Positions 30,022-54,176 of a stretch of 64,000 nt of DNA are shown piece by piece. The stretch is from the NCBI GenBank assembly GCA_963675545.2, contig CAXXRX010000001.1, forward strand, positions 96,326 to 160,325, read 5' to 3'. The notes beneath the pieces were generated by a model. It was not told the DNA's origin. It was given only the letters and a program-made list of their open reading frames with translations, and searched no databases. This stretch comes from Desulfocapsaceae bacterium. GTDB taxonomy: Bacteria; Desulfobacterota; Desulfobulbia; Desulfobulbales; Desulfocapsaceae. The number at the start of each line of letters is the position of its first letter. Position 1 is the stretch's first letter. A program made the position numbers and the translations under genes.

Positions 30022-30549
30022 TTAATCGTCACATAGCAAGTCATTATTTGGTGTGAATTTACAATGTATTCCGTCAGTTGCTTCAAATGATAATCGGAAT
30101 TCAAGTGACTCTTTTTCATAATTAAACTGATGTGTTGATATAATACCCATTGCTGTAGGAGGGATAGAGGAAATATACTTTGGAACAAGTTCTTCAAGTA
30201 TCATTGGGTAATTCATATTATTAGAATAATGTTTATTTAGAGCTGTTATAATAAGATTTGCTCGAAGAAGTGTTTCGTCCATTTTCTTGTTAAATAACCG
30301 TTCACTAGTCATAGTTGCTGCTATAGGAACTAGGCAAAATAAAAAACAGATAATTGTGCCAGGAAATTCTCGTTTCGCCAACATTTTGAACCCCAAAACG
30401 AGTCCTGCAACAAAAATCAATATCGAAACAAGCCCCCTTAGCATGAGTGGCAAGAAGAAGGAAAAACTTTCTAACCTCCAAATAATGAGTATTACGTATA
30501 GGGCTAAAGCAAGAGCGCATATCATTACAAAATTCAGATTACGAACCAT
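30022..30549 (-). CDS. hypothetical membrane protein in AT-rich islet
   Basis: 175 aa with 3-4 TM segments then a soluble tail. A long ORF in an AT-rich (stop-rich) context. Confidence 0.5.
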   Translation of the reverse strand: MVRNLNFVMICALALALYVILIIWRLESFSFFLPLMLRGLVSILIFVAGLVLGFKMLAKREFPGTIICFLFCLVPIAATMTSERLFNKKMDETLLRANLIITALNKHYSNNMNYPMILEELVPKYISSIPPTAMGIISTHQFNYEKESLEFRLSFEATDGIHCKFTPNNDLLCDD

Positions 30550-30838: not shown

Positions 30839-31186
30839 ATGGAGAATAAACTCAAAACAAGTAAACTGGCAATATTGAGCGGATTTTGTGCCGCAATAGT
30901 AGCCTTTATTTTTTTTATAATATTTCCATATATTGCCTATTGGGACGACGTTGATAAAAGCGGACCGGGCACACCTTATGACTCACTTTTGGGGTTATTT
31001 ATGTCGAGCGTATTTGTGCTTTGGATTGTTATTCTTCTGGGAGTTCCTTTAAGTCTTTTAGCACTTCTGAGAATTAAGAAAAATAGGGACAAACTAAGAG
31101 GAAATAGGATTGCATCTATTTCATTAGTGGTATGCACGCTTCCTATTATCTTATACATGACCTTAGCGCTAATTAGTCAATTTTGA
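30839..31186 (+). CDS. hypothetical small membrane protein in AT-rich islet
   Basis: 115 aa with 3 TM segments. An ORF in an AT-rich context. Confidence 0.45.
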   Translation: MENKLKTSKLAILSGFCAAIVAFIFFIIFPYIAYWDDVDKSGPGTPYDSLLGLFMSSVFVLWIVILLGVPLSLLALLRIKKNRDKLRGNRIASISLVVCTLPIILYMTLALISQF

Positions 31187-33017: not shown

Positions 33018-35177
33018 TCAGCTGCCCAGTAGGGTTTTCTTGTCCTGCAGCCAGTCACGTACCCGGTTGCTGATCAGGCGTCCAAGTGAAATACGGGATC
33101 CGCGTGTGTACAGGGTCGCCGGTTGACCGTCTTTCACTTTTTCCGTCACTTCTGCCGGCAGCTCCACATCAAGTGTGAACCGTGGTGCAAACAGTTCAAA
33201 ACGATAGCGCTGCTCCATATCCTTTCCGGTAGTGGAGACAGCCTGCTGTCGGACATCGAGCGGCCCTCCGTACACTGCTCCCAGCGCCGGATGGATCAGT
33301 TCACTGGTTGCAGTGGGTGAAACCTGTTTGAGTGTGCCGGTAACAATACCGAGTCCTGCGGAGCGCATGTCTATTTTCAGGGGCTGGTTTATCAGTGCCC
33401 GGAACTGTTCAACATCATCTTGAGAGGCGCTTGCGGTGATCTGCTTCTGTCCCGGACTGACGATCCAGAAAACTTCCTGGCCCCTGAAAAGATAGGTTCC
33501 CTCAAGTGCATCAAGACCGGCGCCAACAATAACGCCATCACCTTGGGCGCGGACATTGATGGCTCTCAGGTCTGCCTCTCTATCCTGCAGTTTTTCCGAC
33601 AGGTTCTGCTGCTGTTCCTGGAGGATCTGCAGTTTGGTGAGTTGGCCGGTGGACTGGGCGAGACGTCGTTCCAGTTCCAGCTGTTGGATCTGCAGCTGCA
33701 GATCACGGGCAGCATGTGTGAGCTCAGTATTCTCCAGGGTCAGCAGCAGCGCACCCCGGCGTACCTGCTGGCCTGCCGTGACGTAGACATTGCCGACAAA
33801 ACCTTCGGTTTCCGGGCGGACACTGTACTGGTGTCGGTATTCAACGATTGCCGGAGCTTGAATCCTCTGCTCCCAGCTGATCAGGCGAAGGGTGACGGTG
33901 ATGACCAGCAGGGTTAGAGAAAGGCGCAGCAGCAGGTGGCGCAGGGCATGAGGATTCTGTTGCCGGTGAAGCGGCAGCCGCTTAAGAAACTGGTAGACAG
34001 GCATGCCGACCCAGACAACGGCAGCACCGATCGTTGCCAGGATGCCGAAGCCTCCGGCCATGGTGCTGGCGATATAGCCAAGAGAGACGAGAATGAAGAG
34101 GCGCCAGAGATAGATGGCGACGCCATAAAACCTGATAAACCACTGTTTCGGGCTGTTTCGATACAGAGCTCCAGAGGAAATGCCGAGAAACCAGCGTGTT
34201 CCGATTGACCTGATGAACTGCAGGCCGTGGCTGTAAAGATTGGGTATGCCGATCAGGTCGGAAAGGACGTAATAACCATCAAAACGCATGAGCGGATTGG
34301 CATTGAAAAGCAGGGAACTGACCGAGGCGATTATGAACGTATTATGGGCTATGAACCCCGCCGTGGTGTTCGGTTGTCCGGCCCAGACCAGAAGCGCTGC
34401 CCAGCCGATACCGAGCTCGATGAACATGCCGGCGACAGCAACGTGAATGCGCTGCCATTTTGAGGGAAAATTCCATGACGAGGTGGCATTGACATAGGTA
34501 AGCGGAATAAAGAGAATCAGCAGAATGCCGGCCTCGTAAACTCTGCCGCCGTAGCGGCGACAGACCAGGGCGTGAAACAATTCATGAAACAGTTTGAGAG
34601 AAAACCAGATGAGCCAGATAAAAAAAACATTGCCTGCTGAGAAAAAACCGGCGGCCTGACTGCTGAACTCCTGCCATCTTGAAAAAAGCGTACCGAGCGC
34701 CGAGACGGCAAGAATCAGCCAGAGCGCAGCAAACCACTTGCCGGTCAGCCAGGTAAATTTTGGACTGAGGTAGTCCAGCAGAGGGTCCGGATTGAACAGC
34801 GGCACCTTGATGGTGATGATATTGAGCCGGCTGAAGCGCCGGGCATTTTTCTGTTTCTCTTCGATCTCCAGGGCCTGGACCAGGGGGGCGGCATCATCTA
34901 CCTGCAGGAGCTGCCTGGCTGCCAGCCAGTTGAGAATAGCCTGGGCCTGTTCGCTGTCCAGGCGTGTATCACCGGTCTGCGCGACACTCTCCAGCAATTG
35001 TTCAAGTCCGGAGGCCTGGTTCAGCCTGCTGATAAACAGATACTCCTCAAGGCCGATCCGGTAATAGGTGTTGCGAACCGGATCTTTCAGGATGTACTGA
35101 ATACGGTTGCCTTCTTTGACCGGGGAAAAGCGGAGCTCGGAACGGAGTCTCGGCAGGGATGATTCGGCGTGTGCCAT
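33018..35177 (-). CDS. M50 (site-2-protease-type) zinc metalloprotease fused to a C-terminal HlyD-type periplasmic adaptor domain
   Basis: Intramembrane 'HELFH' (34572-34586) and 'NANPLMRFDG' (34275-34304) are the two M50 catalytic motifs. The C-terminal ~300 aa has a lipoyl-like hairpin ('GFVGNVYVTAGQQVRRGALLLTLEN'), a long coiled coil and a beta-barrel like membrane-fusion proteins. Confidence 0.8.
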   Translation of the reverse strand: MAHAESSLPRLRSELRFSPVKEGNRIQYILKDPVRNTYYRIGLEEYLFISRLNQASGLEQLLESVAQTGDTRLDSEQAQAILNWLAARQLLQVDDAAPLVQALEIEEKQKNARRFSRLNIITIKVPLFNPDPLLDYLSPKFTWLTGKWFAALWLILAVSALGTLFSRWQEFSSQAAGFFSAGNVFFIWLIWFSLKLFHELFHALVCRRYGGRVYEAGILLILFIPLTYVNATSSWNFPSKWQRIHVAVAGMFIELGIGWAALLVWAGQPNTTAGFIAHNTFIIASVSSLLFNANPLMRFDGYYVLSDLIGIPNLYSHGLQFIRSIGTRWFLGISSGALYRNSPKQWFIRFYGVAIYLWRLFILVSLGYIASTMAGGFGILATIGAAVVWVGMPVYQFLKRLPLHRQQNPHALRHLLLRLSLTLLVITVTLRLISWEQRIQAPAIVEYRHQYSVRPETEGFVGNVYVTAGQQVRRGALLLTLENTELTHAARDLQLQIQQLELERRLAQSTGQLTKLQILQEQQQNLSEKLQDREADLRAINVRAQGDGVIVGAGLDALEGTYLFRGQEVFWIVSPGQKQITASASQDDVEQFRALINQPLKIDMRSAGLGIVTGTLKQVSPTATSELIHPALGAVYGGPLDVRQQAVSTTGKDMEQRYRFELFAPRFTLDVELPAEVTEKVKDGQPATLYTRGSRISLGRLISNRVRDWLQDKKTLLGS

Positions 35178-35183: not shown

Positions 35184-37049
35184 CTAGAAAAGGAAATCCT
35201 TCAACTGCAGCAGGGTATACCAGGGTTTGTGAAAGACAATCCAGCCCAGGGGCCGGGAACCGGCCTGGATAACTGCCTGTCCACGCATGCCCGGCCTGAG
35301 CCTGCCGTCCGGGTTGTCGAACTCAAGCTCGGCAATAAAAACATTGCGATTCTCCCTGATCTCTGATTTCGGGTTGATTTTTTTTATGGATCCAACCCAG
35401 GAACTATCGGGATAGGCGTCGAATCTCACCCGCACATCCATGTCCGGCTGCAGGTGGGTAATATGGTTTTCGCGCACCGCAAGTTCAACAATCATTACTT
35501 CCAGTGGTGACACTTCAAACAGGCTCTGGCCTTTGCTCACAGGGCTGCCGAGTGCCCGCTTGAGGTCGCCGGAGAGCACGATGCCGTCCACCGGGCTCTG
35601 CAGGATGAGGTGCTTTTGCTGCTCGAGCAGCAGGTTGAGCTGCTCGTCGAGCCGCTGTTCCTCGAGCCTGGCAATCTGGGCTCCGGCGGTATTGCCGAGT
35701 GCCAGGTGATGGTCCCGCATTTTCCGGGCCTTGTTGCGTTCTGCCGTTACTGCCGCCCGGGTACTTTCATTCTCCCTGCCATCGAGAATGGCGAGCGTAT
35801 CACCGTTCTGAACCTTGTCTCCGGGCTGCACCAGGACGTCCTGGAGAATTCCATCGAATCTGGCAACAACGAACCTGGTTGAAACCGGCTGTACCAGGCT
35901 CGGCGTACTCAGGCGAAAGGGCAGCGGCACCATGCCGATTGCTCCCAGCAGCGCAATGGCTGCAGGTACCAGCAAATATCTGCTGAACCGGCGTGTCTTG
36001 CCCGCTCCCCGATTTTTCAGCGCAGTGGAAACAGAGCTGCCTCCTTTTTCCTGCACAACGCCAAGGCAGGAAGCCAGCATGCTCCGGCCTGCAGCAAGGG
36101 ATGAAATAAGCCCCTGCCGCTTTCCCGGCTTCTGCCAGAGAAAAATGAGTGCACCTGTCATGGTGCCCTGCGAGTCGCTGAGCGAGAGGCCGACTGCCTG
36201 GGAGTTTGAGCTGCTGTTCAGCAGCTCCTGGAACAGAGCTGAGCTCTGTTCCAGTGCCTCGCTGATTGCCGGAAAAACGAGAATGTCCTGCTGGATGGTG
36301 CATTCATTGAGGGCTTTGGTGTAGATCCTTGATTGTTCGCTGCGCTGATCCACCGAGGTGAGGTGGGAAAGCGAACTGAGAATCATGCGTCCGGAAGCTG
36401 TCATCGTGCCGATTGCCACCTGCTCGCAGTCAGCCCAGGAACGCAGTCGGGCATTGAGCTGCAGCAGGGCTTCCGGCTGGTTACGGTATTCAAGGCTCGT
36501 GGCGACAAGGGCAACCAGCTGCCGGAACAGGTCCCTGTCACTGCCGGCAGGGGGGTTGTCTTTTTCGAGAAACGTACAGAGCAGGGAGGTCAGCAGCTGA
36601 ATGATCACCAGAAAAGATTCGATAGGCTGATCACCCGTGAGAATGATAAAAGACAGACAACCGGTATGTTGGTTATCATATCCTGCCGGGCAGGAAATCA
36701 GCCGGGCGGCGGGAATATTTTCAAGGGTGCCTAATTGTGCCTGTCCACTGTTCACGGCACGCTGGGCATGTTGCTGCATGCAGTCGACTAGATCTGAAGA
36801 CCAGGAGAGGGCCTGCCTGGAGAGCAGTTGCTGTTCGACTGCAAGATCACCGTTCTGCTCCCGGCTAAAATAGATGACACCTGCGGCATTGACCAGGCCG
36901 ACTGCTGCCTGCAGGAAGTCCAGGATAAGCCGATGGCGAGTCTCCGCCTGGTCGCCAAGTTGCTGGAACTGGCTGGAAAGCCGGTGAATGTCCGGGCGTT
37001 TTATGACACCACTGCCCGGAGTGGCGCGGTTTGATAGAATATCGCTCAA
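35184..37049 (-). CDS. HlyD-type membrane-fusion protein with a ~350-aa cytoplasmic N-terminal domain of unknown family
   Basis: Single TM (YLLVPAAIALLGAIGMVPLPF) at about aa 355-375, then 'ARFDGILQDVLVQPGDKVQNGDTLAILD', a coiled coil and 'SPVDGIVLSG'. TTG start at 37049 with no obvious SD. Its stop lies 6 bp before the next gene. Confidence 0.7.
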   Translation of the reverse strand: MSDILSNRATPGSGVIKRPDIHRLSSQFQQLGDQAETRHRLILDFLQAAVGLVNAAGVIYFSREQNGDLAVEQQLLSRQALSWSSDLVDCMQQHAQRAVNSGQAQLGTLENIPAARLISCPAGYDNQHTGCLSFIILTGDQPIESFLVIIQLLTSLLCTFLEKDNPPAGSDRDLFRQLVALVATSLEYRNQPEALLQLNARLRSWADCEQVAIGTMTASGRMILSSLSHLTSVDQRSEQSRIYTKALNECTIQQDILVFPAISEALEQSSALFQELLNSSSNSQAVGLSLSDSQGTMTGALIFLWQKPGKRQGLISSLAAGRSMLASCLGVVQEKGGSSVSTALKNRGAGKTRRFSRYLLVPAAIALLGAIGMVPLPFRLSTPSLVQPVSTRFVVARFDGILQDVLVQPGDKVQNGDTLAILDGRENESTRAAVTAERNKARKMRDHHLALGNTAGAQIARLEEQRLDEQLNLLLEQQKHLILQSPVDGIVLSGDLKRALGSPVSKGQSLFEVSPLEVMIVELAVRENHITHLQPDMDVRVRFDAYPDSSWVGSIKKINPKSEIRENRNVFIAELEFDNPDGRLRPGMRGQAVIQAGSRPLGWIVFHKPWYTLLQLKDFLF

Positions 37050-37064: not shown

Positions 37065-37367
37065 CTAGTTGACGTCCGACAGCTTTGCCTGCGCAGCAGC
37101 GGGAACCTTTGCGGGATCTGCATCCTGTTTGTTTAAAACGTTGCCAAGTACGGCATGCAGGCGTTTGGCACCATTGATGGTCATGGCCATTCGGGTATGA
37201 ATCGGCAGGATGGACTCACCGCCGGCCGGGTCGGTGATCGGGCCTGAGGAAAAATTAATTGTCAGGTCTTCACCGCTGGTGTTGACAATAAACTGGGACG
37301 CATAGAGGGCCGAGGTCTCGTTGTAACGGACCTTGATCTGCTGTTGTTTCTTGGCATCATCTGTCAT
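37065..37367 (-). CDS. DUF3467-like small cytoplasmic protein
   Basis: 100 aa. 'YASQFIVNTSGEDLTINFSSG....LPIHTRMAMTINGAKRLHAVLGNVL' follows the DUF3467 pattern (Y.N......s..EF.lDF ... sR....p..AKRL..aL..n). GGAG SD upstream. Confidence 0.55.
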   Translation of the reverse strand: MTDDAKKQQQIKVRYNETSALYASQFIVNTSGEDLTINFSSGPITDPAGGESILPIHTRMAMTINGAKRLHAVLGNVLNKQDADPAKVPAAAQAKLSDVN

Positions 37368-37385: not shown

Positions 37386-38219
37386 TTATCGTTTCGTGAA
37401 CGTGCAGCGGCTGCCGCTCATCAGGTTGTTATCCGGGTTGGCAATGGTGACGCGGACCTCGACGGTACCGCTCTGGGCATTGATGATTGGTGAGATAAAA
37501 GCAATTGTTCCGGAAGCGGCTACCCCATCAATTTCAAGAGGCAGCGTTGTCCCGTGATCCAGGGTGATCGCAATCTCAGGCGGCAGGTGAAAGAGCGCCT
37601 GCAGCGGGTCGAGCTGGACGATCGTCATGAACCGTTCCTGGTCAGTACCGCCGATCAGTTCCGCCAGTTGGCGGTCGATTGTAACGACGATGCCGTCAAC
37701 CGGGCTGCGGAGTTTCTTTTCTTCGATCTGGGCCCGGATGATTGCCGCTTCAAGTTTTTTCAGTGTCTGTTCTTCGAGTGCGCTCTGCAGTTGTGCCCGG
37801 GCCATGAAAAGATCCGTCTGGGCTTTGGTCATTTCCTGGGGGCGGGCGTTGCCGCTTTTCTGCAGGTCCTGTAGCATCTCATACCTGTTTTCCTGCATGG
37901 TGACAAACGCTTTGGCCGAATCTATTCTGCCCTTGAACGAAGCGGCGGTTTCGGCTGATTCCAGCCTCGCTTTGAGCACACTGCTGTCAAGTTCGGCAAG
38001 CAGCTGTCCTGCCTCAACCTTGTCTCCAATGCCGACGTGGATAGCGGTTATACGGTCTCGAAACGGCGCAGAGATCTCTACAACCTGCACCGGTTCCAGA
38101 AAGGCGTCATAGCTCTGGGCCGAAACAAATTGAGCCGGCAAGAGAAGAAAAACAGCAATAATGAGACAGCGTGCAGCACGCGGCCATGCAGTGGTGTCCT
38201 GCCGAGTAATCAGGGTCAT
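37386..38219 (-). CDS. short HlyD/RND-type periplasmic adaptor (membrane-fusion) protein
   Basis: Signal/anchor (CLIIAVFLLLPAQFVSAQ), a lipoyl-like motif 'ISAPFRDRITAIHVGIGDKVEAGQLLAELD', a coiled coil and 'SPVDGIVVTI'. Start at ATG 38219, 13 bp after the TolC-like stop; the ORF is open to 38294. Confidence 0.7.
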   Translation of the reverse strand: MTLITRQDTTAWPRAARCLIIAVFLLLPAQFVSAQSYDAFLEPVQVVEISAPFRDRITAIHVGIGDKVEAGQLLAELDSSVLKARLESAETAASFKGRIDSAKAFVTMQENRYEMLQDLQKSGNARPQEMTKAQTDLFMARAQLQSALEEQTLKKLEAAIIRAQIEEKKLRSPVDGIVVTIDRQLAELIGGTDQERFMTIVQLDPLQALFHLPPEIAITLDHGTTLPLEIDGVAASGTIAFISPIINAQSGTVEVRVTIANPDNNLMSGSRCTFTKR

Positions 38220-38232
38220 CGCGGTCGGAGAA

Positions 38233-40056
38233 TCAGTTCGATCGTACCTGCATGTCCGGCAGCGTTTGCCCATCTTCAGGTTTAACCTCTGCAAAGGTGA
38301 TATTGTTGTTGCTGACCAGGATTCCCATGGCCCGATAAAGGTTGAAAAGCGAGTAATTGTAGGTCAGCTCACTTTTGGCAAACAGTTCCTCTGAATCGCT
38401 CAGCCGTTCGCCGGCGTCCATCAGTCGGTAGAGCACATCTCCATAGGGTTCGTTGTTGGCCAGCAGGTAATCGACCTGCGAGAGCAGGGCCTTGACCTCT
38501 TCATCATCAGAGATCATGATCTGGTAACTCTGTACCATGGAACGGTAATTTTTTTCAAGCTCCCGATATGAAACCTGGGTTTCGAGCAGCACGTTTTCAA
38601 CGGTGGTGTCAAGCTGGTGCAGGAGCTGCCGGATCTCCAGCTTTTTTCTGGTGTTACGGGCCTTGGCGCCATTGTTGCCCAGCGGGTACTCAAAGCGCAG
38701 TCCCGCCACATAGCTGGGACCGCCTTCATCAAACTGGTCGGAGTAGGCTGTGCCATACTCGTAATCTCCCTCAAGCCCTTTGACATAGGTCTGGAAAAAC
38801 AGATCCAGGTCCGGCATCAGTTCATTTTTGGAACGGTCCAGACGCAGGTTGGCAGACTGGATATGCTTGACGGCCTGGGCTACTTCAGGGCGATTGTTTA
38901 AGGTTGTCTGCAGAGCCTGGTCAAAAACGACCTCAAACGGCTTGTTGCTGGGCATCTGGCTGGTGACCATCTCCAGTCCTGAAGCATTTAACAACTCCGG
39001 ATCGTTGACCAGAGCGCGGATGCGGGACTGGGCGTTGAGCATGGCGTATTCCGCCTGCATCGCGGCGAGCTTGTGGGCATTGACCAGGGACCTGGAGCGT
39101 GCCAGCAGGCTGGGCGGCACATCGACGCCGCTGCGCTGCTGCATCTGTTTGAAAATGTCGAGGCTTTTACTGGCAAGCTGTTTTTTCTGCAGCAGCAGGG
39201 AGCGTTCCAGGTAAAGCCCCCAATAGGCGCGGCTCACCTCAAGCAGATGGCTCTCCACACTGCGCCGCAGTTCCTCACCGGCGATTGAATAATCAATTCC
39301 GGCAAGATCAATAGGTGAGCGGTTGTAACCAATGCCGAAGCGCTTCAGCAGTGGCTGGCTGATGGTCAGGTAGGTGCCTGCCCTGGCCTGTTCTTCCGGG
39401 TTGAAATAAATGGAATTGGTGTCCATGTCGCCGATATTCTGCTTCAGCTCGACCTCTGTTCCTGTCAGGAATTTTTTACGCACACCGTATTCCAGATTCC
39501 TGGCATCTTCTTCATAGCGCAGCGGCCCGCCGGTCTGCAGGTCATCCCCCACCGGTTCATCGAGATCAGAGAGACGTCCTTCGGCGAACAGCCTGAAATC
39601 GTATGGTCCTTGCGCTTCCTGGATTGTTGTCTGGCGAATAAGCGGCAGGTCGCTGAAAACCTTGATCTGGGATGAGTGTTTCAGGGCACGACTGAACAGC
39701 GAGGTAACGTTTGTTGAGATTTCCGCTACGCTCTGATTGATCCGACCGTTGACACGTGTCTGCCACCAGGGAGAAAAATTTTCCGGGATGGAACCGGAGT
39801 CGATTTCCAATTGGTCTTCCGAGGTGCCGGAAAAAACACTGGTGTAGCCCTTTTCAGACTGTTCCATCTGCTCGATCAGCATCGAGTATCTCTGGAACAG
39901 CCTGGTCTTCAGATCATCATAATCGAGCTCGCTTTGCTGTGCAGCCTCTACAACCAGCTCATAGTCTGATGCCGCCTTGTCCTGGGCGTGGAGGGCGTTT
40001 ATCCAGGAAAGACTGCCGACAACTGCAAGCGCAATGAATATGGATCGTGTTTTCAT
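38233..40056 (-). CDS. TolC-family outer membrane efflux/secretion protein (unusually long, 607 aa)
   Basis: Signal peptide (IALAVVGSLSWINALHA). Two OEP-type repeats, e.g. 'ALQTTLNNRPEVAQAVKHIQSANLRLDRSKNELMPDLDLF'. Confidence 0.85.
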   Translation of the reverse strand: MKTRSIFIALAVVGSLSWINALHAQDKAASDYELVVEAAQQSELDYDDLKTRLFQRYSMLIEQMEQSEKGYTSVFSGTSEDQLEIDSGSIPENFSPWWQTRVNGRINQSVAEISTNVTSLFSRALKHSSQIKVFSDLPLIRQTTIQEAQGPYDFRLFAEGRLSDLDEPVGDDLQTGGPLRYEEDARNLEYGVRKKFLTGTEVELKQNIGDMDTNSIYFNPEEQARAGTYLTISQPLLKRFGIGYNRSPIDLAGIDYSIAGEELRRSVESHLLEVSRAYWGLYLERSLLLQKKQLASKSLDIFKQMQQRSGVDVPPSLLARSRSLVNAHKLAAMQAEYAMLNAQSRIRALVNDPELLNASGLEMVTSQMPSNKPFEVVFDQALQTTLNNRPEVAQAVKHIQSANLRLDRSKNELMPDLDLFFQTYVKGLEGDYEYGTAYSDQFDEGGPSYVAGLRFEYPLGNNGAKARNTRKKLEIRQLLHQLDTTVENVLLETQVSYRELEKNYRSMVQSYQIMISDDEEVKALLSQVDYLLANNEPYGDVLYRLMDAGERLSDSEELFAKSELTYNYSLFNLYRAMGILVSNNNITFAEVKPEDGQTLPDMQVRSN

Positions 40057-40083: not shown

Positions 40084-43000
40084 TCAGTGACTGTTACGTG
40101 CCGGCTGGGTCGATGGGGCGTCAAACTCATAGCCCTTGAAACCGTCCCACCTTATATCAAAGGTCGAGAGATTGCTCTGGTGCATGGACTGCAACACCGT
40201 AGAAGGCAGATAGGCAAATACCGTCTCCACGTCCAGGCTGGTGCTTGAATAGACCATGCTGCTGAAGCTTGGGTAAAAATAGGTGCGCATGTTGAAGAAA
40301 CCGGCACTGCTCGCATTATAGCTCGATATCGTCTGGCCGATTTCCATGTGATGCGGCAGCTCGAACATGATGGTTTCAGGCAGGTCGGCAAGCCAGTTGC
40401 CGGCCGTGTCGGCCATGACGCTGCGGTAGCCGACCTGGTTGCCCATGGCGTCGTGGAGAACAAGCTCAATCGTGGTTCCCGGCTCTGCCAGGCCGGAATA
40501 AATCGGCGACACCGGTAGCGGCGGCAGCAACCACGGTTGCTCCTCGAAGCGGGTAAAGATATCGCCCTGGTCGCCAAACTGGCGATACATGAAGAAGGCA
40601 TCGGCCACAAGACCCTGCGCAGGAGGTTCAACCGGGCCCGGAGATGGCGGGCGGGACGGCGGTGTTATGGGTACTACCGGTTCGCCCGGGTCCGGTGGCC
40701 GGGGACCTGGAAATGGTGAGGGGCCGAAATATCCGAAATCCCTGCTCAGGTCGTTTTCACCGGCAGCAAGCGTCACTTGAGACTGGTTGTCAAGTATTGC
40801 ATCGGGGTCTCCTGTCTGGGTCAGGTCAGGCGGCAATGTCGTGGTGTCAACGTAGACGGTGTACTGCCCAGCCGTGAGGTTGTCGAAGAGGTAGGTCCCG
40901 GTTGCATCCGTTGTGGTCGTCACCGCTTCTATGGTACCGTCGTTGTCAAAATCTCCCTGCAGGGTTACCCTCACTCCGGAAAGCCCGCGTTCACCTGAAC
41001 TCTGGTAGCCGTTGCCGTCCGCATCAAAATAGATGGTATCGCCGATGGAGCCGGTGCCGGTATAGCCGAAATCCTGGTCGTTATTGACGGCTCCCGGGCC
41101 CAGGTTAAGCGTGGTGCTGTTGTCAGGCGTGCCATCGGGGTCACCGCTCGGCCTGACATCAGCGGGCAGGCTGGCCGGGTCCACGCTGATTGTGTATTCA
41201 CCGGCCGGCAAATTATCAAAACTGTAGGTTCCGGCGGCATCAGTTGCCACTGTTGCTGTGTAGTCGGGAGTTCCGTCTCCATCAAAATCAACACTGATGG
41301 TGACGTCAATACCCGGCATGCCGTTTTCGCCGGCATCCTGGGTTCCGTCACCATCGGTATCAAAATAGATCGTGTCACCGATGACGCCGCTGCCGGTGTA
41401 GCCGAAATCCTGCTCGTCATTGTCTTCACCTGCTCCAAGCGATACCACGGTGGTACTGTTATTGACTCCGTCAGGATCCTCCGTCTGGCTCATTCCGCCG
41501 GGCAGGGTTGACTGGTCAACAGTTATGGTATAATCACCTGCCGGCAGATTATCGAAGCTGTAGGTCCCGCTTGCATCAGTTGTCGTGGTGACCGTCTCCG
41601 TTGTGCCGTCACCATCAATATCACCGCTCAGAGAGACGGTGACGCCCGGTAGACCGACATCACTGCCATCCTGGGTGCCGTTATTGTTCTCATCAAAATA
41701 GATGGTATCACCGATGGAACCGGTGGATGCCCCTGTATTATGGTAGCCAAAATCCTGATCGAGATTTGTTCCTCCGGCAGGAAGGTTGACTGTCGATGTT
41801 GAGTCCGGGTTAGAATCAGGGTCGGCAGTGAGTACGTACCCGTCTGGTATATCAGATGTATCCACTGAAACAACGTAGGTTCCGCCAGGCAGATTCTCGA
41901 AAAGATAGTTCCCGGAAGCATCGGTGGTGTCGGTCTGGGTATAGTCCACTGTTCCGTCGCCGTCAAAATCGAAAGAGAGGGTTACGTCAATGCCGGGCAA
42001 TCCGGGTTCCCCTCCATCCTGGATGCCATCGTTGATCACATCATTCCAGATGGTATCGCCGATCGAACCGCTTCCCTGGTACCCGAAATCCTGGTCAAGA
42101 TTGTCTTCACCATCGGCTAGTATAACCGAAGCCTGGTTTGCGATACCGTCGTTGTCGGGATCTGCTGTCTGGTTCATACCGGCAGGCAGCGAAGCGGGGT
42201 CGACTGTAATGACAAAGCTTCCGGCCGGCAGATTGTCAAACAGGTAATTGCCGTTGGCATCGGTTGTGGTGGTGACGCTGTCGGGTGTACCGTCGCCGTC
42301 TAGATCACCTGTCAGCGTAACCGAAACGCCGGGCAGTCCAGTCTCGGTACCATTCTGATCACCACTGCCGTCACTGTCAAAGAAGATAGTATCACCGATG
42401 GAGCCGGTCCCGCTGTTGTAGCCGAAATCCTGGTCAAGGTTGTTTTCACCGGCTGTGAGACCGAGCATGGTCATATTGTCGTTTGTGCCGTCGGGATCAC
42501 CGCTCTGACTCAGGCCGGCAGGCAGGGTTAAGGGGTCAACGATGAGGGTGTAATCTCCGTCCGGCAGGTTGTTAAAAAGATAGGTACCGTTGCTGTCGGT
42601 TGTAACGGTCTGCGTGTAATCAGGAGTACCATCGCTGTCGATATCAGCAGTGATAGTAATATCCACACCAGCTATGCCGGTTTCGCTGCCGTTTTGTAAA
42701 CCATCGCCGTCCGTGTCATTCCAGATCGTGTCACCGATGGAACCGGTCCCGGTGTAGCCGAAATCCTGCAGCAGGTTGTTCTGGGCACCTCCCAGAACAA
42801 GGGTTGAGGTGTTGTCAAGGGCGCTGTCGGGATCACTGCTCTGGATAATGCCCAGGGGCAGCGACGCCGGGTCAACGGTCACCGTGTATCCGCCGGCCGG
42901 CAGGTTTTCAAAGAGATAGTTGCCATCTGCGTCGGTCGTGTCGACATAGGTGTAGTCCGCCACACCATCGCCGTCGAGGTCGAGGTCGATGGTGACCTGG

Positions 43001-46000
43001 ACTCCGTTGATACCACCTTCATTGGTTTCCTGTGTTCCGTTATTATTGCCGTCAAAGAAAATGGTGTCACCGATGGAGCCGGTCCCGTTGTAGCCGAAAT
43101 CCTGGTCGAGATTGTCTTCGTCAGCTGCCAGCGTAAGTATCGCTTGATTTGCAGTTCCGCCGTCAGGATCCTGCGTCGGGCTCAGCCCGGCTGGCAGTGT
43201 TGCCGGGTTGATGATAATCGTGTAGTCACCGCCGACGATATTATCGAAAAGATACATGCCGTTGCTGTCGGTCGTAGTTGTTACCGTGTCCGCTGTCCCA
43301 TCACCGTCGATGTCGCCGGTCAGGGTTACCGTGACTCCAGAGAGTCCGGGTTCAGTGCCGTTTTGCCCGCCGCTGCCGTCCGCGTCAAAGTAGATCGTGT
43401 CGCCGATGGAGCCTGTGGATTGTCCACTATCCCAGTAGCCGAAATCCTGGTCCAGGTTGGTCCCGCCTGCAGGCAGGTTGACGGTTGTGGTCGAATCGGG
43501 GTTAGCATCGGGGTCTGCGGTGAGGACATATCCGTCAGGGATATCGTCGGTATCGATACTGATGGTATAGGTTCCCTCGGGCAGGTTGCCGAAACTGTAG
43601 GTACCGCTGCCATTTGTTGTGGTTGTTGCCGTATAGTCCGGAGTCCCGTCGCCGTCAAAATCAACGGACAGGGTTACGTCGACGCCGGAAAGTCCTGTTT
43701 CACCACCATTCTGGGTGCCGTCACCGTCAACATCGTCCCAGATAGTGTCACCGATGATACCGGTTCCGGTGTAGCCGAAATCTTCATCAAGCTCATCGAT
43801 ACCGCCTGCCAGAATAACCGTGGAGGTGTTGTCGTTGCCGCCGTCAGGATCGGCAGACGGGCTCATGCCGCCGGGCAGATCCGCCGGATCGACCGTTACC
43901 GTGTAGGTGCCGTCCCGAAGATTTTCGAAGAGATACCTGCCGTCGGCATCGGTTGTCGTGGTAAGCACATCCTCGATACCGTCGTTATTCACATCACCGG
44001 TCAGGGTAACGGTAATCCCGGGAATACCTGCATCTCCGGGTGTTTCACCTCCGGAGTTGTCGGCATCGAAAAAGATCGTATCGCCGATGGAGCCTGCGCC
44101 GGTGTAGCCGAAGTCGACGTTGTTGTTGTTTTCGCCGTCGGCCAGTGCAATCGAGGCATTGTCCGGAGTCCCGAGACCGTCGAGATCAAAGGTCTGCTCC
44201 ATGCCGGCCGGTGTTGCATCAATTGTTACCGTATAGTTTCCAGGCAGCAGATTCTCGAAGCTGTAGTTGCCGTTTTCATCAGTCGTAGTGGTAAGGGAGA
44301 TATCACCAAGATTGTCACCGGTAATATCGCCGGTCAGGGTCAGCGTTACGCCACCAAGGCCCTGTTCGCCGGCATCGAATACACCGTCAGCATCCGCGTC
44401 GTACCAGACGGTATCGCCGATTGAGCCGGTGCCTTGATTAAAATAACCAAAGTCCGCATCGTCTCTGGCTTCAGCGATATCAAGTGCGATTCCGCTGATG
44501 ACATGCTCGGTGTCAATTCCGTCCAAATCGTATGTTGCTATTGTGCCGTCCGGAAGATTCACCGGATCTACGGTTACCGTGTAATTGTCAAAGGCCGGCA
44601 GGTTTTCAAACAGGTAGTAACCATTTTCATCGGTTGTGTCTGTCCAGGTAAAGTCCGACGTGCCGTCACCGTCAGTGTCAGCGCTCAGTGTCACCAGGAT
44701 ATCGGTAATACCGGTATCGCCAGGGGTTTCACTGCCAGACTGATCGGTGTCAAAGAACACGGTATCGCCGATGCTGCTGGTTGTGATAACGGTAAAAACA
44801 GTCTCACCAACATCTCTGTCGGCAAAGATGCCGTCATCAACGGGTGAATCGATTCCGTCGTCTTCATCGTATACACGCTCATCGGGGTCTGATCCATCCT
44901 GGCCTGACCAGTCGGCATCTACACTGTTTTCATGAGGGGTGGGTAGAAATATGGCATCCAGTACGGTTACCGTATATTCAATCTCGACATATTCTCCGAC
45001 CGGTATATCCCAGTTGCCGACGATGGAAACCGTGCCATCATCGTTGTCAGTCATGGTCGGGTCAGCTACTGCGCCAAAACTGCTGGAGACAGAGGAGTAA
45101 CTAACAAAGCTGGTACCCGGCGCCAGAGTATCCAGCGCATTGACTTCATAGGCAGTGGAATTGCCGCCATTGGTGAACCGTACTGTATAGGTGAGTGTTT
45201 CATTCCACTGGGCATCCGTGCCGCTATCGAGGGAGTCTGCCACGCTTTTTTCGGTTTCGATCCACGGCTCGACAACGCTCAGGCTGTCAGTATCATCGTC
45301 TGTTACCTCGTCGCCGTCAACATTGTCATAGCTCAGGGTGACCGTATTGCCGAGAGCGGCGCTGTCAAAATTGCCGGAAACATTGGCTACCCGTGCCGTA
45401 TAGGAAATGATCAGCGGATCGTCGGTATCAACGATGGTATCGCCAAGGTTCCAGGTTATGGTGACCGCGGTGCTGCCGTCATTGGTGCCGAAGGTCGGAT
45501 CCTGGCTCAATTCGGTGGAAAAACTGCCGCTTGCCGTGCTGATTGTTGCATCATCGTTAAAAACCAGGCCGGCGATCAAAACATCTTCAATCACCAGGTT
45601 GTTGATGGTTCCTTCCGGAGCGTCAATCGTCAGGGTATAGGTGATCGTATCACCAATGGTGGCTGTGCTGGTATCACCGTCACTTTTATCGATGGTTACG
45701 CCGGGGATGGTGAATTCCGCGGTATCAACATCACGGTCTGCATTGACGCCGCCGTCGACCGGCGAGTCCACACCGTCGTTTTCATCATAGACCCGTTCGT
45801 TCGCTTCACCCGGATCGTTGTTGTCAAGGCTTGACCAGTCTGCATCCACGGTGTTTGTGTGGCTGCCGTCAACGATTGCTGCGTTGGTCACGGTGGCCGT
45901 ATAGACCAGAACCAGCTCGGCGCCCTGGGCAAGATCCCAGGCGTCATCGGCAAAGGTGATGACGGAGTTGTCACCATTCGGGGTTGCGGTGTTCAGATCG

Positions 46001-49000
46001 AAGTTGGTGTCGACGCCATCGATCCGGGCGCTCTGGATAGCTCCGAACGTAGTCCCCTGGGCCAGGGTATCGTTGAAATTGACCTCGTAGGCCGTGGCGT
46101 TGCCGCCATTGTAAAGGGTCACCGTATAGGTGACGGTATCTCCAGCTTCCACGCCGGATGTCGGAGAGACATCTTTGTTCGTTTCGATCCACGGCTCGAC
46201 AACGCTCAGGCTGTCAGTATCATCGTCTGTTACCTCGTCGCCGTCAACATTGTCATAGCTCAGGGTGACCGTATTGCCGAGAGCGGTGCTGTCAAAATTG
46301 CCGGAAACATTGGCTACCCGTGCCGTATAGGAAATGATCAATGGATCGTCGGTATCAACGATGGTATCGCCAAGGTTCCAGGTTATGGTGACGGTGGCGC
46401 TGCCGTCATTGGTGCCGAAGGTCGGATCCTGGCTCAATTCGGTGGAAAAACTGCCGCTTGCCGTGCTGATTGTTGCATCATCGTTAAAAACCAGGCCGGC
46501 GATCAAAACATCTTCAATCACCAGGTTGTTGATGGTTCCTTCCGGTGCGTCGATCGTCAGGGTATAGGTGATCGTATCACCGATGGTGGCACTTGTTATA
46601 CCGCCGTCGCTCTTATCGATGGTCACGCCGGGGATGGTGAATTCCACAGTATCGATATCACGGCCAGCATTTAGGCCGTCGTCCACCGGTGAATCGACGC
46701 CGTCGTCTTCGTCATAGACCCGTTCGTTTGCTTCTCCCGGGTCGTTGTTGTCAAGACTGGACCAGTCGGCATCCACCGTGTTGGTATGGCTGCCGTCAAC
46801 AACAGCAGCGTTGGTAACGGTGGCCGTATAGACCAGGACCAGTTCAGCACCCGGAGCAAGGTCCCAGGCGTCATCGGCAAAGGTGATGACGGAGCCGTCA
46901 CCATTTGGGGTTGCGGTATTCAGATCGAAGTTGGTGTCGACGCCATCGATCCGGGCACTCTGGATAGCTCCGAACGCAGTCCCCTGGGCCAGGGTATCGT
47001 TGAAATTGACCTCGTAGGCCGTGGCGTTGCCGCCATTGTAAAGGGTCACCGTATAGGTGACTGTATCTCCAGCTTCCACGCCGGATGTCGGAGAGACATC
47101 TTTGTTCGTTTCGATCCATGGCTCGACAACGCTCAGGCTGTCACTATCATCGTCTGTTACCTCGTCGCCGTCAACATTGTCATAGCTCAGGGTGACCGTG
47201 TTGCCGAGAGCGGCGCTGTCAAAATTGCCGGAAACATTGGCTACCCGTGCCGTATAGGAAATGATCAGCGGATCGTCGGTATCAACGATGGTATCGCCAA
47301 GGTTCCAGGTTATGGTGACCGCGGTGCTGCCGTCATTGGTGCCGAAGGTCGGATCCTGGCTCAATTCGGTGGAAAAACTGCCGCTTGCCGTGCTGATTGT
47401 TGCATCATCGTTAAAAACCAGGCCGGCGATCAAAACATCTTCAATCACCAGGTTGTTGATGGTTCCTTCCGGAGCGTCAATCGTCAGGGTATAGGTGATC
47501 GTATCACCAATGGTGGCTGTGCTGGTATCACCGTCACTTTTATCGATGGTTACGCCGGGGATGGTGAATTCCGCGGTATCAACATCACGGTCTGCATTGA
47601 CGCCGCCGTCGACCGGCGAGTCCACACCGTCGTTTTCATCATAGACCCGTTCGTTCGCTTCACCCGGATCGTTGTTGTCAAGGCTTGACCAGTCTGCATC
47701 CACGGTGTTTGTGTGGCTGCCGTCAACGATTGCTGCGTTGGTCACGGTGGCCGTATAGACCAGAACCAGCTCGGCGCCCTGGGCAAGATCCCAGGCGTCA
47801 TCGGCAAAGGTGATGACGGAGTTGTCACCATTCGGGGTTGCGGTGTTCAGATCGAAGTTGGTGTCGACGCCATCGATCCGGGCGCTCTGGATAGCTCCGA
47901 ACGTAGTCCCCTGGGCCAGGGTATCGTTGAAATTGACCTCGTAGGCCGTGGCGTTGCCGCCATTGTAAAGGGTCACCGTATAGGTGACGGTATCTCCAGC
48001 TTCCACGCCGGATGTCGGAGAGACATCTTTGTTCGTTTCGATCCATGGCTCTATGACGGTAACGACAGGATCGATCGGGTCATCCACTCTGATGGGATCC
48101 CCGCCGACAGGGTTGTCATAGACCATGTAGGTGTCGTTGGTAAGCGTCGACCCGTCGTAATTGCCGGTACCAGTGAGGACATCAAGAACCAGGGCCCTGA
48201 TCCCGATGACAAAGGCGTCGTTTTCAAAACCGCCCGGGTCATTGTCAGGAGCTATCGAAACAGTGCCGAAACCAAATGATACGGCTTCACCATTTGCTGT
48301 ACCCCCGGTGATTGCCGCCGGAGGCAGGACCGGGCCGGAAAAATCCGCTGCGAGCAATCCGGATGGGTCGTTGCCTATACCGGCCTGAGTGAAGAGCTGG
48401 TAGGAGCCGTCAATATAGCTCATGCCGGCAGGTAAATCGTCGGTGACAATCAGGTTGGCCGTGTCGCCTTCGGGTAGAGTCACCAGTATATAATATTGTA
48501 CTTCCTCACCGATGGTGTAGCTCAGCGGATCTGGATCGACCTTGTCAATTGTTCCCCCTACCGTGACTATAGCGGAGGCATCAGTGATATAGTCGTCGGG
48601 ATCACCCGTGGCTGGGGTCCCAGTGCGCTCACCAGGATCGCCGTCTTCCGGCAGGCTGGTCCAGTCAATCGTGGCGGTGTTGGTCAGGTTTTCCCCGGCC
48701 TGCGGGTCGGTGGCAAGATGGGCGGTCAGGGTGATGGTATAGGTGTCGCCGAGCTCAAAACTATCCCAGAAACCCGAAAGGGTATTACCGCTGACCGTGA
48801 CGGCGTCAGATACTCCGGAAAGGGAGCCGGTGCCGGCCTGACTGGTAATGGTAACCGTGTCGTAACCTGCCGGCAGAGTGTCGGCAAGGGTGACGTCAAA
48901 GGCATCGGCAGTACTTATTTCGTTGTCGATGGCGGTCTCATTATCATGATTAATCTCGATCGTGAAGGTGACGGTATCGTCTTCGTCGGGGGTCGGGTTG

Positions 49001-52000
49001 TCGACGCTCTTGCTGACCAGCAGCTTCGGTTCGACAATCGTTACGCTTTCACCTTCGCTGACGCTATGATTATCGGAGTTGCCATCGGTCCAACTCCACA
49101 CCGCATTATTGGACAGGTTGTCGTTGTTCTGGTTGGCGCCGATATTTCTGACCAGTGCGGTGTAGGTCAGGGTCAGGGTTTCAGCCACACCGTTGTCGCG
49201 GTTCTGATTATCTAACGTGTTAAAATCGACAAAAAAGGACAGGCCGTCAGCGGCGATGCTGCCGTTTGCAGCAAGAAAAGCAAGATTGTTCGGATCACTT
49301 AGATTGCTCAGATCATAAATGGTCCCGACTGACGAGGTAAAATCAGTTGATGCTGTGGTCAGTGAGTCAAGTGAGATGATCTCCAGGCCGCCACTGGGGT
49401 CGAGATCATCAGCGAGCATGACATTCGTTGCCTGGCCCTCAGGAAGCGTGATTGCTACCGTGTAGGTGATCGTTTCCCCGATCGTGACATTCGGGTTATC
49501 GGTATGGGGCTGGCTGGTAGTATCAATTGCCTTGTCGACAAGGACATCAGGTATCTGTGCGCTCGCCTGATCTGTCAGGCCGCCGGGAATATGATTGCTG
49601 GCACCGTTGTCGCCGCCGTAGTTCTCAAGCGTTGCTGTGTTGAGCAGGGTCTGGCTGGGTCCGACATTGTCGGCCAGCAGCAGATCATAGGTAATCACCA
49701 TGATATTGGTCCCTACTGTCGGGTCGTAACCCGCAAGAGCACCGTCATCGACTGTGTCATTAAGGATCAGTCCGGTGCCGAACAGATCACCGCTGTAGGA
49801 AAGAGCGGTGCCATTGCCGTCGGTTGCCTGCAGGCTGAGGGCGACGAAGGTATAACCTGTCGGCAGCACATCGCTTATGGTGACGTCGAAAGCATCTGAA
49901 TGGCCGGTATTTTCGACGACAATGGCGACAGTGATGGTATCGCCGGCGTCGATGTTGGAGATATCGGTATCGATATTATGAGAATCCAGCCAGTCGGAGG
50001 TAATGTTCTGTTCGAGTCGACCTGCGCTACCCGGCTCGGTGAAATAGTTGTCAACAGTGGTGTTGCCGCTGTAGATATCGGCCTCATTGTCGCTCTCGAC
50101 AATACCCTTGGTAATCTCCAGTACCGGCTGGTCCAGGACGATCTGAAATATATCGTCAGTATTCGAGTCGACCAGTGGCGTGCCATTTTCGGTACCGCGC
50201 ACCTGGTTTGCCAGGTAGAGTCCGTCGGCAAATGGTTCACTGTTGACTGTTACGGTGAAAAGAATATCGATATAGGTCTGCTGAGGGGCGATATCATCGT
50301 TTTCACCGTAGACAAAGCTGAGCCTGTTTTCGCCATTTTCCGTGAACGTCTCAAGAAAGATCGGTTCGAGTGGAAAGACAGTGGAAAACGTGTCGGTGGG
50401 ACCCAGGCTCCATTCTCCTGCCCCGGGTAAACCGGCTACGGGATCACTTCCCTCGGTGAATTCATCAGCATCGAAAACCGGCAGCGGCAGGTAGTCATCA
50501 AGGCGAAACGACTCGAATTCACTGGTCGGCATCAGGTACTGCAGCTGGTAGGTAACGGTATCCCCTGGCTGCATATGCAGCCGGCCTTGGGCATCGGTGA
50601 AGCTGCTGAGATCGGTAAAACCGTTTATTGCATAGACATCTTTCTGGATCAGCTCACCGACCTCGATCTGAATTGCCGTGGCGGAATCATCAGTGTCGGT
50701 GTCGAAGCCTGTATCCGTGAGAGTACCGCTGCCGTTATCTCCATAAATCTGGCCGCTGATGTCAACATTGTTGGTAAGGAAATCACCCTGGTCAACGGAC
50801 TCATCTCCCGGGCCGGAACTGTCGCCGGTACTAATGTAGCTGTCCTTGATCAGGGCATAATAGGTGATCGTGCCCCCGGCCGGAGTGCCTGAAACAGCGC
50901 CGTCGTAAAGATCACCCTGAAGGATACCGTCCAGTCCACCTGCTACGGCCGAAATATCGAAGCTGAGTGAAGTGTCATCATCAGCCTGGGAACTGCTGGT
51001 CAGGTCGGTGCCGACAGTCCAGCCACCTGTCCATGAACCTGTTTCATCCTGAATGTCATAGATCGGAGCATAGGCCCCTGTGGTCTGGAGCTCGAGTCCG
51101 TCTGCCAGAATATCGGTGACAACAATGTCGCCGAAATTGAAATAATCTGAAATCTGAAACTCAACGGTATATTCGAGGATGTCGCCAGGGTTGTAGCCGC
51201 CGATGATACCGGTATCACTGCCCGGAAACGGTGCAAAGTCGACACCTTTCTGTACGGCAATCGCCTCCGCCTGGAAAATCTCATCGATATTCGGTGTCGG
51301 CGAGATGGTGCCGTCTCCATAGACCTCGGCATTGACAACGAGGCTCACCGAAGAATCATCGGGGTCTGTCGGGGTCCAGTTACCTTCCACCCGGGCGTTG
51401 TTGATGACTTCGCGGTCTTCAGTGCCGCCGATTACATCATCGCCGGTAGCGGGGTCGAGTATCGGTGTAACCCCGTCGGCGTAGAACTCCGGCACATAAA
51501 AATCGAACGTGATGACGACATCCTGAGCTGTAGCACCTCCAGTCACCGGGTTGTCCAATTCAACCTCAAGGACGCCGTCGGTGAAGATACCGCCTGCTGC
51601 ATTGGGCGAGGTGACGGTAAAAGACTGCCCGGTGCTGACTGCAACAGTGGCGTCGCCCAGATAATAAATTTCGTTGGGTAAGAGTTCGGTAAGCTGCAGG
51701 TTGTTGATGGTCTGGCCGTCGGCGATATCGATGGTGATCTGATATTGGTGTGGATAATTGGGTCCTGTGGCGGTTTCCTGTTCCGGGCCGAGATAAACCT
51801 TTTCAAAGCGGATAACTTCGGGGCGGAAGGTCTGGGTGTCGACCAGCGTCGGGCCGATCGGCGGATCAGTCGGTGGATCGCCAGTTGGATCATTGAGTGC
51901 GGTTTCGCCATAGCGGTAGCCGTTGTAGACCCGGATATCAAAATCCTCAGCGGCCCCGCCACTACTGTCTACCTGCCGGAATTCATCAATATGTGCGGTT

Positions 52001-53408: not shown

Positions 53409-54176
53409 TCAGAGAATCTGGCTGAGAAAGAGCTTGGTCCGCTCGTGTTGCGGGTTATCGAAGAATTCATTCGGCTTATTTTCTTCAACGATTTCACCAA
53501 AATCCATAAAGATGACCCGGTCGGCGACGGTCTTGGCAAAACCCATCTCGTGGGTTACCACGATCATCGTCATGCCCTCCCGGGCAAGATCGACCATGAC
53601 ATCGAGCACTTCCTTGATCATCTCGGGGTCAAGGGCTGAGGTGGGCTCATCAAAGAGCATGATCTTCGGCTTCATGCAGAGGCTGCGGGCAATTGCCACG
53701 CGCTGCTGCTGGCCGCCGGAGATCTGGCCGGGATACTTGAGCGCCTGCTCCGGAATCTTGACGATTTCCAGGTAATGCATGGCAAGCTCTTCGGCCTCTT
53801 TTTTCGGAGTTTTTCTCACCCAGATGGGGCCGACCGTCAGGTTTTCGAGGATGGTCAAGTGGGGGAAAAGATTGAAATGCTGAAAAACCATACCGACTTC
53901 GGTTCGTACCTTTTCAATATTTTTCAGGTCGGTGGTGAGTTCTATGCCGTTAACGATAATCTGGCCGCGCTGGTGCTCTTCCAAGCGGTTGATGCAGCGG
54001 ATCATTGTTGATTTGCCGGATCCGGAAGGCCCGCAGACCACGATCCGTTCCTGCGGATGAACGACAAGGTTGATGTCCTTGAGCACGTGGAAATCGTCGA
54101 ACCATTTGTGCATCTTGATAATTTCGATGATCGGTCGATCGTTTGTACTGTTGTTTCTGGCCGGATCGCTGTTCAT
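53409..54176 (-). CDS. aapP: polar amino-acid ABC transporter ATP-binding protein (AapP/GlnQ-type)
   Basis: Walker A 'GPSGSGKST', signature '[13 protein letters not shown]' (here [15 protein letters not shown]), Walker B '[12 protein letters not shown]'. Confidence 0.9.

Follow-up and report, generated by a model that had tools for sequence, protein, structure and literature searches.

The window considered here is a 64,000-nucleotide (64-kb) stretch of contig CAXXRX010000001.1 from a Desulfocapsaceae bacterium, and the subject of this analysis is a minus-strand operon within it that ends in a gene fusing an intramembrane protease to a periplasmic adaptor. In reading order the operon encodes a giant protein of 4257 residues, a TolC-like outer-membrane factor (OMF), a short periplasmic adaptor protein (PAP), a small DUF3467 protein, a second PAP of 621 residues and, last, the fusion protein, with neighbouring genes either overlapping or separated by gaps of 6–27 nt. 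The architecture of the fusion protein is assigned because of its family and fold matches, and runs from a domain resembling the RiPP (ribosomally synthesised and post-translationally modified peptide) recognition element (RRE), through a site-2 protease (S2P) core of peptidase family M50, to a periplasmic adaptor. Its features, all on the minus strand, are the following, with the basis of each in brackets.

33018..35177, minus strand: RRE–S2P(M50)–PAP fusion protein of 719 residues (open reading frame; Pfam and NCBIfam domains; AlphaFold2 models; Foldseek)
34917..35132, minus strand: β3–α3 domain, residues 16–87, with an RRE or PqqD-like fold, predicted cytoplasmic (model; Foldseek)
33882..34739, minus strand: membrane domain, residues 147–432, with the putative S2P core (hydropathy; model; 3b4r fold match; NF041824; PF02163 in homologs)
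34572..34586, minus strand: HELFH, the HExxH zinc-binding and catalytic motif, residues 198–202 with H198, E199 and H202 (exact coordinates; invariance in 52 homologs)
34275..34304, minus strand: NANPLMRFDG, the NxxPxxxxDG motif, residues 292–301, with D300 as third zinc ligand (exact coordinates; alignment of 52 homologs)
33021..33878, minus strand: periplasmic adaptor (membrane-fusion) module, residues 434–719, with an α-hairpin at 484–538 (Pfam; Foldseek)

The fusion is genuine and has thousands of relatives. One uninterrupted frame with an ATG start covers all 719 residues, the same one-polypeptide layout is found in more than 100 homologs of ~700–750 residues, and a frameshift or two-gene artefact is ruled out by the single open reading frame (ORF) seen here and in all full-length homologs. 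A word-indexed homolog search with the fusion protein gave more than 1,130 matches, the N-terminal half alone retrieved 4,689 cluster representatives at E ≤ 1e-30 (the best 150 being almost all ~700–750 residues long), and tblastn located the whole protein as a single stretch in at least 587 species-representative genomes, so that an earlier note on this DNA was right to place protease and adaptor in a single polypeptide. The nearest named relatives come from Desulfobulbaceae, Desulfogranum and Desulfomarina. Database names for the family include "efflux RND transporter periplasmic adaptor subunit" (NCBI; RND, resistance-nodulation-division), "HlyD family..." and "putative peptide zinc metalloprotease protein" (JGI), and NCBIfam contains no curated model specific to it. 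A survey of polymorphic toxins (PMC3482391) makes no mention of HlyD, TolC or M50. Full-text literature search, with most subscription journals outside it so that absence is not proof, found no paper on the fusion, its substrate or DUF3467, which agrees with the earlier statement that no experimentally defined substrate is known for this class.

Both catalytic motifs lie at exactly the positions that the earlier note had given for them. H198, E199 and H202 are identical in all 52 aligned full-length homologs, down to 37% identity, and the segment N292-x-N294-P-L-M-R-F-D300-G-Y302 is likewise invariant, the exception being A293, which is conserved in at least 90%. Because of this invariance both motifs can be said to be under strong selection, and chance matches are excluded. 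In the S2P signature an asparagine is followed by proline at +3, aspartate at +8 and glycine at +9, and the spacing in the fusion protein is the same. The Pfam family PF02163 (Peptidase_M50) covers residues 193–267 of the fusion protein at a sub-threshold 24.1 bits (cut-off 27.2), is matched by 50 of the 52 homologs at E ≤ 1e-3 (best E 2.4e-9), and is present as a precomputed match in many relatives. The best matches among named families are NF041824, the daptide intramembrane metalloprotease (residues 31–392, E 1.6e-43, 149.3 bits against a cut-off of 300), and NF058609, the YydH/LiaK family (25 bits against a cut-off of 225). By these scores the protein is a homolog, not an equivalog, of the daptide protease, nor an equivalog of YydH.

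An AlphaFold2 model of the whole protein reached a pLDDT (predicted local distance difference test) of 83.4, and residues 1–440 were modelled separately (pLDDT 82.0) because a Foldseek search with the whole model returned only adaptors. In the predicted structure the N-terminal domain is followed by a long helix and a strand, leading to transmembrane helix 147–166 and then to helix 181–208, which contains the HExxH motif (hydropathy marks a hydrophobic segment at 178–198). After this helix comes a re-entrant β-hairpin (residues 215–230), succeeded by helices 240–267 and 272–292, the latter running straight into the NxxPxxxxDG segment, and by three further long hydrophobic helices (345–373, 375–407 and 411–432). 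The top match of the 1–440 model in the PDB is 3b4r_A, the S2P of M. jannaschii, with a probability of 1.00 over 187 columns at a weak E of 9e-3. Alongside the PF02163 matches and the invariant motifs, this agreement upholds the earlier assignment to the M50/S2P group, in which the protein is placed by its motifs and modelled fold, zinc-dependent proteolysis being predicted. Seven transmembrane helices and a basic loop (residues 399–414) before the last of them are consistent with an N-in/C-out arrangement as the simplest topology, from which it follows that both catalytic motifs would lie near the cytoplasmic face.

Upstream of the membrane domain, the earlier note had suggested that the N-terminal ~140 residues could serve as a leader or substrate recognition module, and the predicted fold of residues 16–87 speaks for this. 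In the model, strands 16–22, 25–32 and 37–41 precede helices 43–50, 58–68 and 75–87, and Foldseek aligns the domain with the leader-bound RREs of TbiB1 (5v1v, 5v1u) and lasso B1 (6jx3) at probabilities of 0.99–1.00, target-normalised TM scores of 0.66–0.72 and a root-mean-square deviation of ~3 Å; TglHI and then the sactipeptide enzyme of entry 5why are next among the matches. It shares with known RREs (PqqD-like; TbiB1, lasso B1, TglI, CteB) the β3–α3 winged-helix fold at a target-normalised TM score of ~0.7, but has no PqqD match in Pfam, is joined to a membrane protease, and has the N-terminus of a giant protein as its putative ligand. At the opposite end of the chain, HlyD_D23 matches residues 436–624 (50.7 bits, cut-off 30) and HlyD_3 is also above its cut-off (30.5 against 22.2), and Foldseek identifies MacA (3fpp, E 2e-13) as well as MexA, AcrA and EmrA. 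The modelled α-hairpin follows transmembrane helix 411–432, and with a barrel-sandwich (lipoyl) domain, a hairpin and a β-barrel predicted after a membrane anchor, this half has the layout of a periplasmic adaptor. These matches, and the TolC-like gene within the operon, confirm the earlier adaptor assignment of the C-terminal half. Such adaptors are also recognised by a co-encoded transporter of the ATP-binding cassette (ABC), RND or major facilitator superfamily (MFS) type, and none was found in the operon, a lack that the earlier note does not mention, nor inside the clusters of those related loci that were inspected.

The remaining operon genes, and the leader that turns out to be central to their interpretation, are these.

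40084..52857, minus strand: giant repetitive adhesin-like protein of 4257 residues, the proposed cargo and first gene of the operon (Pfam and NCBIfam repeats; composition)
52792..52818, minus strand: LEERIFLDA, putative leader core, residues 14–22 of the giant protein (NF012209; motif pattern)
38233..40056, minus strand: TolC-like OMF, 607 residues (Pfam OEP, 5e-18)
37386..38294, minus strand: short PAP, up to 302 residues (TIGR01730, 110.8 bits, cut-off 94.9)
37065..37367, minus strand: DUF3467 small protein, 100 residues (PF11950, 28.1 bits, cut-off 25)
35184..37049, minus strand: partner adaptor of 621 residues, an N-terminal part of ~350 residues and then a PAP (Pfam HlyD_D23, 8.8e-21)

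The giant protein consists of repeats matching SdrD_B (12 copies), DUF11 and CarboxypepD_reg, together with ten copies of the isopeptide-forming fimbrial domain TIGR04226, and its composition is skewed, with no cysteine, 13.2% aspartate, 12.7% threonine and 0.5% lysine. Proteins exported unfolded through TolC-type systems are typically cysteine-free, acidic and poor in lysine in this manner. No RTX-repeat or type I C-terminal-signal family matches the giant protein, and in its last 260 residues no C-terminal sorting signal was recognised. A Sec-type signal is absent from its N-terminus, MKKSLKKYLLLEQLEERIFLDANP, which carries a tag of the "LEPR-XLL" kind, with the consensus LExLExR(V/I)L(F)(S/D)AxP. 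The core of this motif, written as the pattern [LIVMF][ED].R[LIVMATF][LIVMF][LFYM][DSN][AG], matches once in a six-frame search of the window, at the N-terminus of the giant protein.

This tag recurs beside relatives of the fusion gene. Altogether 82 related loci were gathered: an exact look-up of proteins supplied two, and species genomes the other 80, which are the best of the at least 587 genome matches and mostly from Planctomycetota. Many of the loci are incomplete. Their hosts include Desulfobulbaceae, many Pirellulaceae, other Planctomycetota, Verrucomicrobiota, Beggiatoa and other Thiotrichales, Saprospiraceae, Kuenenia and Magnetococcales. In 26 of these loci neighbouring genes carry the same tag at their N-termini, and large ORFs beside the relatives' fusion genes, where their starts fall within the loci, share the start motif of the giant protein (examples are LLIEQLEERALFDAVP, FEALEPRVLFDAAP and LLESLEDRILFDA). 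The core pattern has 28 matches in 1.36 million six-frame residues of the loci, against ~2, at random positions, expected on our own rough estimate from amino-acid frequencies. Without exception the 28 fall close to an ORF start, and for 22 of them a cluster gene lies no more than 600 bp away. Alignment of the leaders shows conservation outside the pattern as well, with R at −7, L at −5, E at −2 and P at +10. By virtue of these counts, positions and flanking conservation, the fusion family is specifically associated with LEPR-XLL-type N-termini. Comparative genomics thereby lends strong backing to the proposal, implicit in the cleavage assay of the earlier note, that residues 1–60 of the giant protein would hold the substrate signal.

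The other operon members are conserved to differing degrees. In 64 of the 69 loci with enough upstream sequence, the gene directly preceding the fusion gene encodes a homolog of the 621-residue adaptor; a short PAP is found in 51 of the 82, an OMF in 36 and DUF3467 in 12. Desulfobulbaceae relatives repeat the gene order of the window, down to a giant gene of SdrD_B repeats, which is cut off by the edge of the locus. Inside the cluster, 29 of the 82 loci, mainly from Planctomycetota and Verrucomicrobiota, encode a SecA-like ATPase of ~650 residues, which comprises the SecA_DEAD motor, the preprotein cross-linking domain and the second nucleotide-binding (P-loop) domain, with little or no wing and scaffold. 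Examples, by locus and position, are given below.

L012:4755-6698
L036:5010-7004 (Stieleria marina K23_9)
L044:4814-6925
L076:12041-14032
L082:12163-14184

Gammaproteobacteria have a divergent form of ~640 residues (L078), mostly annotated as hypothetical, and a search seeded with this gene recovered only a small family of ~640-residue proteins, from Arenicellales, Acidiferrobacterales and other groups, none of its names pointing to Desulfobacterota. No SecA-like gene is within reach in the Desulfobulbaceae loci or within the 64-kb window. Full-text searching, with the reach given above, found no work on the function of LEPR-XLL or on clusters combining SecA-like, HlyD and TolC proteins, for which an earlier description may exist.

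Taken together, these data somewhat favour a reading in which the fusion protein is the inner-membrane, leader-recognising protease–adaptor subunit of a TolC-dependent export apparatus for giant LEPR-XLL proteins. Its cytoplasmic RRE-like domain (residues 16–87) would capture the LEPR-XLL leader of the 4257-residue protein, and the S2P active site (H198, E199, H202 and D300), predicted to be open to the cytoplasmic face, would remove or clip this leader while the cargo, unfolded, cysteine-free and highly acidic, passes outward. The C-terminal adaptor and the two other adaptors of the operon would bridge the periplasm to the TolC-like channel, so that the unfolded acidic cargo could be exported in one step. 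More tentatively, and at a little less than even chances, the operon may represent one form of an undescribed and phylogenetically broad envelope-spanning secretion system, built from the RRE–S2P–adaptor, two further adaptors and a TolC-like channel, in which the truncated SecA-like motor of Planctomycetota and Verrucomicrobiota takes the place of a type I ABC transporter. Viewed as one-step TolC/adaptor secretion with leader processing, the proposed apparatus has a substantial chance of deserving a place as a secretion system in its own right.

Several known systems offer points of comparison. Peptidase-containing type I exporters combine a C39-ABC transporter with a HlyD-type adaptor and TolC, as in CvaB/CvaA/TolC for colicin V, and provide the closest functional analogy, with an N-terminal leader, a built-in inner-membrane protease at the cytoplasmic face, and an adaptor with a TolC-like channel. 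Here, in contrast, the protease would be an RRE-guided zinc enzyme of S2P type fused to the adaptor and not to an ABC transporter, there is no ABC ATPase, the presumed cargo is a 4257-residue protein and not a peptide, and the leader is LExLExRxLF(S/D)AxP in place of a double-glycine type. Giant adhesins of the LapA/LapBCE and SiiE/SiiCDF type I systems rely on a C-terminal signal and an ABC transporter. They resemble the present case in their giant, repetitive, acidic and cysteine-free adhesin-like cargo encoded beside an OMF and adaptors, but differ from it in its N-terminal tag, its lack of an ABC transporter and its three different adaptors, one of them bearing a protease. Among the hallmarks of type I secretion, the adaptor and OMF are present here, and an ABC exporter and an RTX or C-terminal signal were not found. 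Membrane M50 proteases of RiPP pathways process soluble leader-bearing peptides, and so provide a precedent for enzymes of this kind acting on such substrates. As membrane M50 enzymes and closest named relatives by sequence (NF041824; YydH/EpeP/LiaK; TglG/TmoG), they are akin to the fusion protein, yet they lack an adaptor module, the fusion scores below their equivalog cut-offs, and its presumed substrate is the giant protein; for EpeP, a dual role in cleavage and export has been proposed (PMC10885120). With the S2Ps of regulated intramembrane proteolysis (3b4r, RseP, SpoIVFB), finally, the fusion protein has in common the spacing of the HExxH and NxxPxxxxDG motifs, the β-hairpin after the HExxH helix and the predicted fold, but it is devoid of PDZ or CBS domains, bears an N-terminal RRE-like and a C-terminal adaptor module, and lies in a gene context of secretion type and not of signalling type.

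Some observations weigh against leader-guided export by this machinery. One concerns the inner membrane: the operon encodes no ATPase or known inner-membrane translocase and the window has no SecA-like gene, so that a 4257-residue protein has no evident route across this membrane. Classical S2Ps cut hydrophobic transmembrane segments, and the leader of the giant protein, being charged and amphipathic, is unlike their substrates. Structural matches come with weak Foldseek E-values (9e-3 for the S2P and 1.5e-2 for the RRE) despite probabilities of 1.00; two family profiles gave no sequence-level match to solved S2Ps, the link being visible by fold search alone; and Pfam finds nothing in residues 1–141, PqqD included, even at E up to 10. 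The tag itself scores 16.8 bits on residues 9–30 of the giant protein with NF012209 (LEPR-XLL/LEPR-8K), just below the cut-off of 17. The sample of loci is heavy in Planctomycetota, a phylum in which LEPR-type proteins may be widespread across the genome, and some loci from Thiotrichales carry the fusion gene without partner genes.

Four other explanations were considered, each of which the data fit less well than a leader-recognising export subunit. The fusion protein might be a quality-control or regulatory protease, engaged in clearing stalled cargo, processing partner subunits or releasing the adhesin, in which case the RRE-like domain, like the LEPR motif, would have a targeting function alone. 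The same architecture and synteny fit this possibility, the leader alignment shows no readable cleavage site, and the partner adaptor contributes a sizeable, presumably cytoplasmic domain to which no role is assigned. Even so, an RRE beside a protease stands for leader-guided processing in RiPP systems, the structures matched in the PDB are leader-bound, and leader removal is the simplest account of a strictly invariant active site combined with an N-terminal tag on the cargo, so that a quality-control or regulatory role is considered unlikely. Less probable again is a degenerate or scaffold-only S2P that does no more than anchor an adaptor, within a standard tripartite efflux pump or classical type I system whose transporter is encoded elsewhere; an operon that lacks a transporter, and the name given by NCBI, would suit such a role. 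Invariance of four catalytic residues and their surrounding motif across phyla is, however, not what would be expected of a scaffold, in the loci whose clusters were inspected no ABC, RND or MFS gene intervenes and a SecA-like ATPase recurs instead, and type I families find no match in the giant protein.

A third proposal, which appears slightly weaker still and decidedly improbable, is a RiPP-type maturation or export protease, like YydH/EpeP or the daptide enzyme, acting on a nearby small peptide unrelated to the giant protein. In its favour are the best named families (daptide protease at 149 bits, YydH/LiaK at 25), the RRE fold, the radical SAM and class-V aminotransferase genes downstream and the JGI name of the family. 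Yet the scores fall far under the cut-offs of 300 and 225, the two downstream genes are not conserved beside relatives, a 166-nt gap and a stretch of low G+C content (GC) lie between them and the operon, and the cluster retains neither RiPP tailoring nor daptide-type genes, its conserved content being a set of adaptors, an OMF and large LEPR-motif proteins. No small precursor gene came to light, no screen aimed at short ORFs having been made. A classical S2P of regulated intramembrane proteolysis that cleaves an anti-sigma factor or another membrane regulator, allowed for by the fold and motifs, is very improbable in view of the fusion to a periplasmic adaptor, the synteny with an OMF, the absence of PDZ and CBS domains and the lack of sigma or anti-sigma genes in the operon or related loci.

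Should the fusion protein indeed be a leader-recognising protease–adaptor, a family of thousands that now goes by "efflux adaptor" or "putative peptide zinc metalloprotease" would be misnamed, and the fusion would become the signature subunit of a distinct export route for the largest surface proteins of Planctomycetota, Verrucomicrobiota, Desulfobulbaceae, Thiotrichales and others. The LEPR-XLL tag, a long-unexplained motif of very large proteins, would be accounted for by a cognate receptor and protease, and leader recognition in the style of RiPP systems, through an RRE, would extend to protein secretion. Such a route would also provide a TolC/adaptor conduit that dispenses with an ABC, RND or MFS pump and, in some phyla, employs a SecA-like ATPase. 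With a leader of 60 residues, three catalytic residues and a machine of five genes, the question is open to direct test.

Further details concern the partner proteins. The 621-residue adaptor has, as read by eye, a hydrophobic stretch near residues 360–380, and the ~350-residue domain preceding it, presumably cytoplasmic and without a sequence match in Pfam or the PDB, could be the docking place of a motor or of cargo; a GAF-like identity for this domain was an impression by eye and is unsupported. DUF3467 and its profile likewise have no sequence match in the PDB, and a suspected similarity to SecB-like chaperones was not supported by hhalign against E. coli SecB (probability 0.1). With its listed TTG start, the short adaptor gene would share 62 nt (38233–38294) with the end of the OMF gene, and its true start is probably a downstream internal ATG (MGKRC... 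or later).

Among the related loci, four (L009, L014, L019 and L064, from Beggiatoa, Thiotrichales, Candidatus Venteria and one member of Verrucomicrobiales) have no adjacent partner adaptor, OMF or LEPR-motif neighbour, and in L009 a Cache-GAF protein lies upstream of the fusion gene; these loci may reflect a different usage of the same fusion. Two copies of the system in one genome occur as L021 and L023 (on the same Mariniblastus contig), L044 and L071, and L055 and L080, DUF3467 is duplicated in L080, and L031 and L076 contain two LEPR-motif ORFs each, which suggests several cargos per machine or paralogous machines.

Outside the operon, the genes upstream of the giant gene at 53409..57853 were considered as a candidate ABC exporter and proved to encode a binding-protein-dependent importer (SBP_bac_3, two BPD_transp_1 and ABC_tran), the only ABC system of the window. 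The genes on the downstream side are the following.

28208-29482 and 31709-32851, minus strand: B12-binding radical SAM enzyme and class-V aminotransferase (SufS-like), downstream of the operon

These two genes are probably unrelated to the operon because they are not conserved beside the cluster in relatives. The low-GC stretch that helps to set them apart lies close by on the downstream side of the cluster, extends over positions 30000–32000 (39.6%, compared with ~55% in the operon) and carries small ORFs resembling membrane proteins at 30022..30549 (minus strand; scanned, with no family match) and 30839..31186 (plus strand), and this stretch may be an inserted segment or the boundary of an island.

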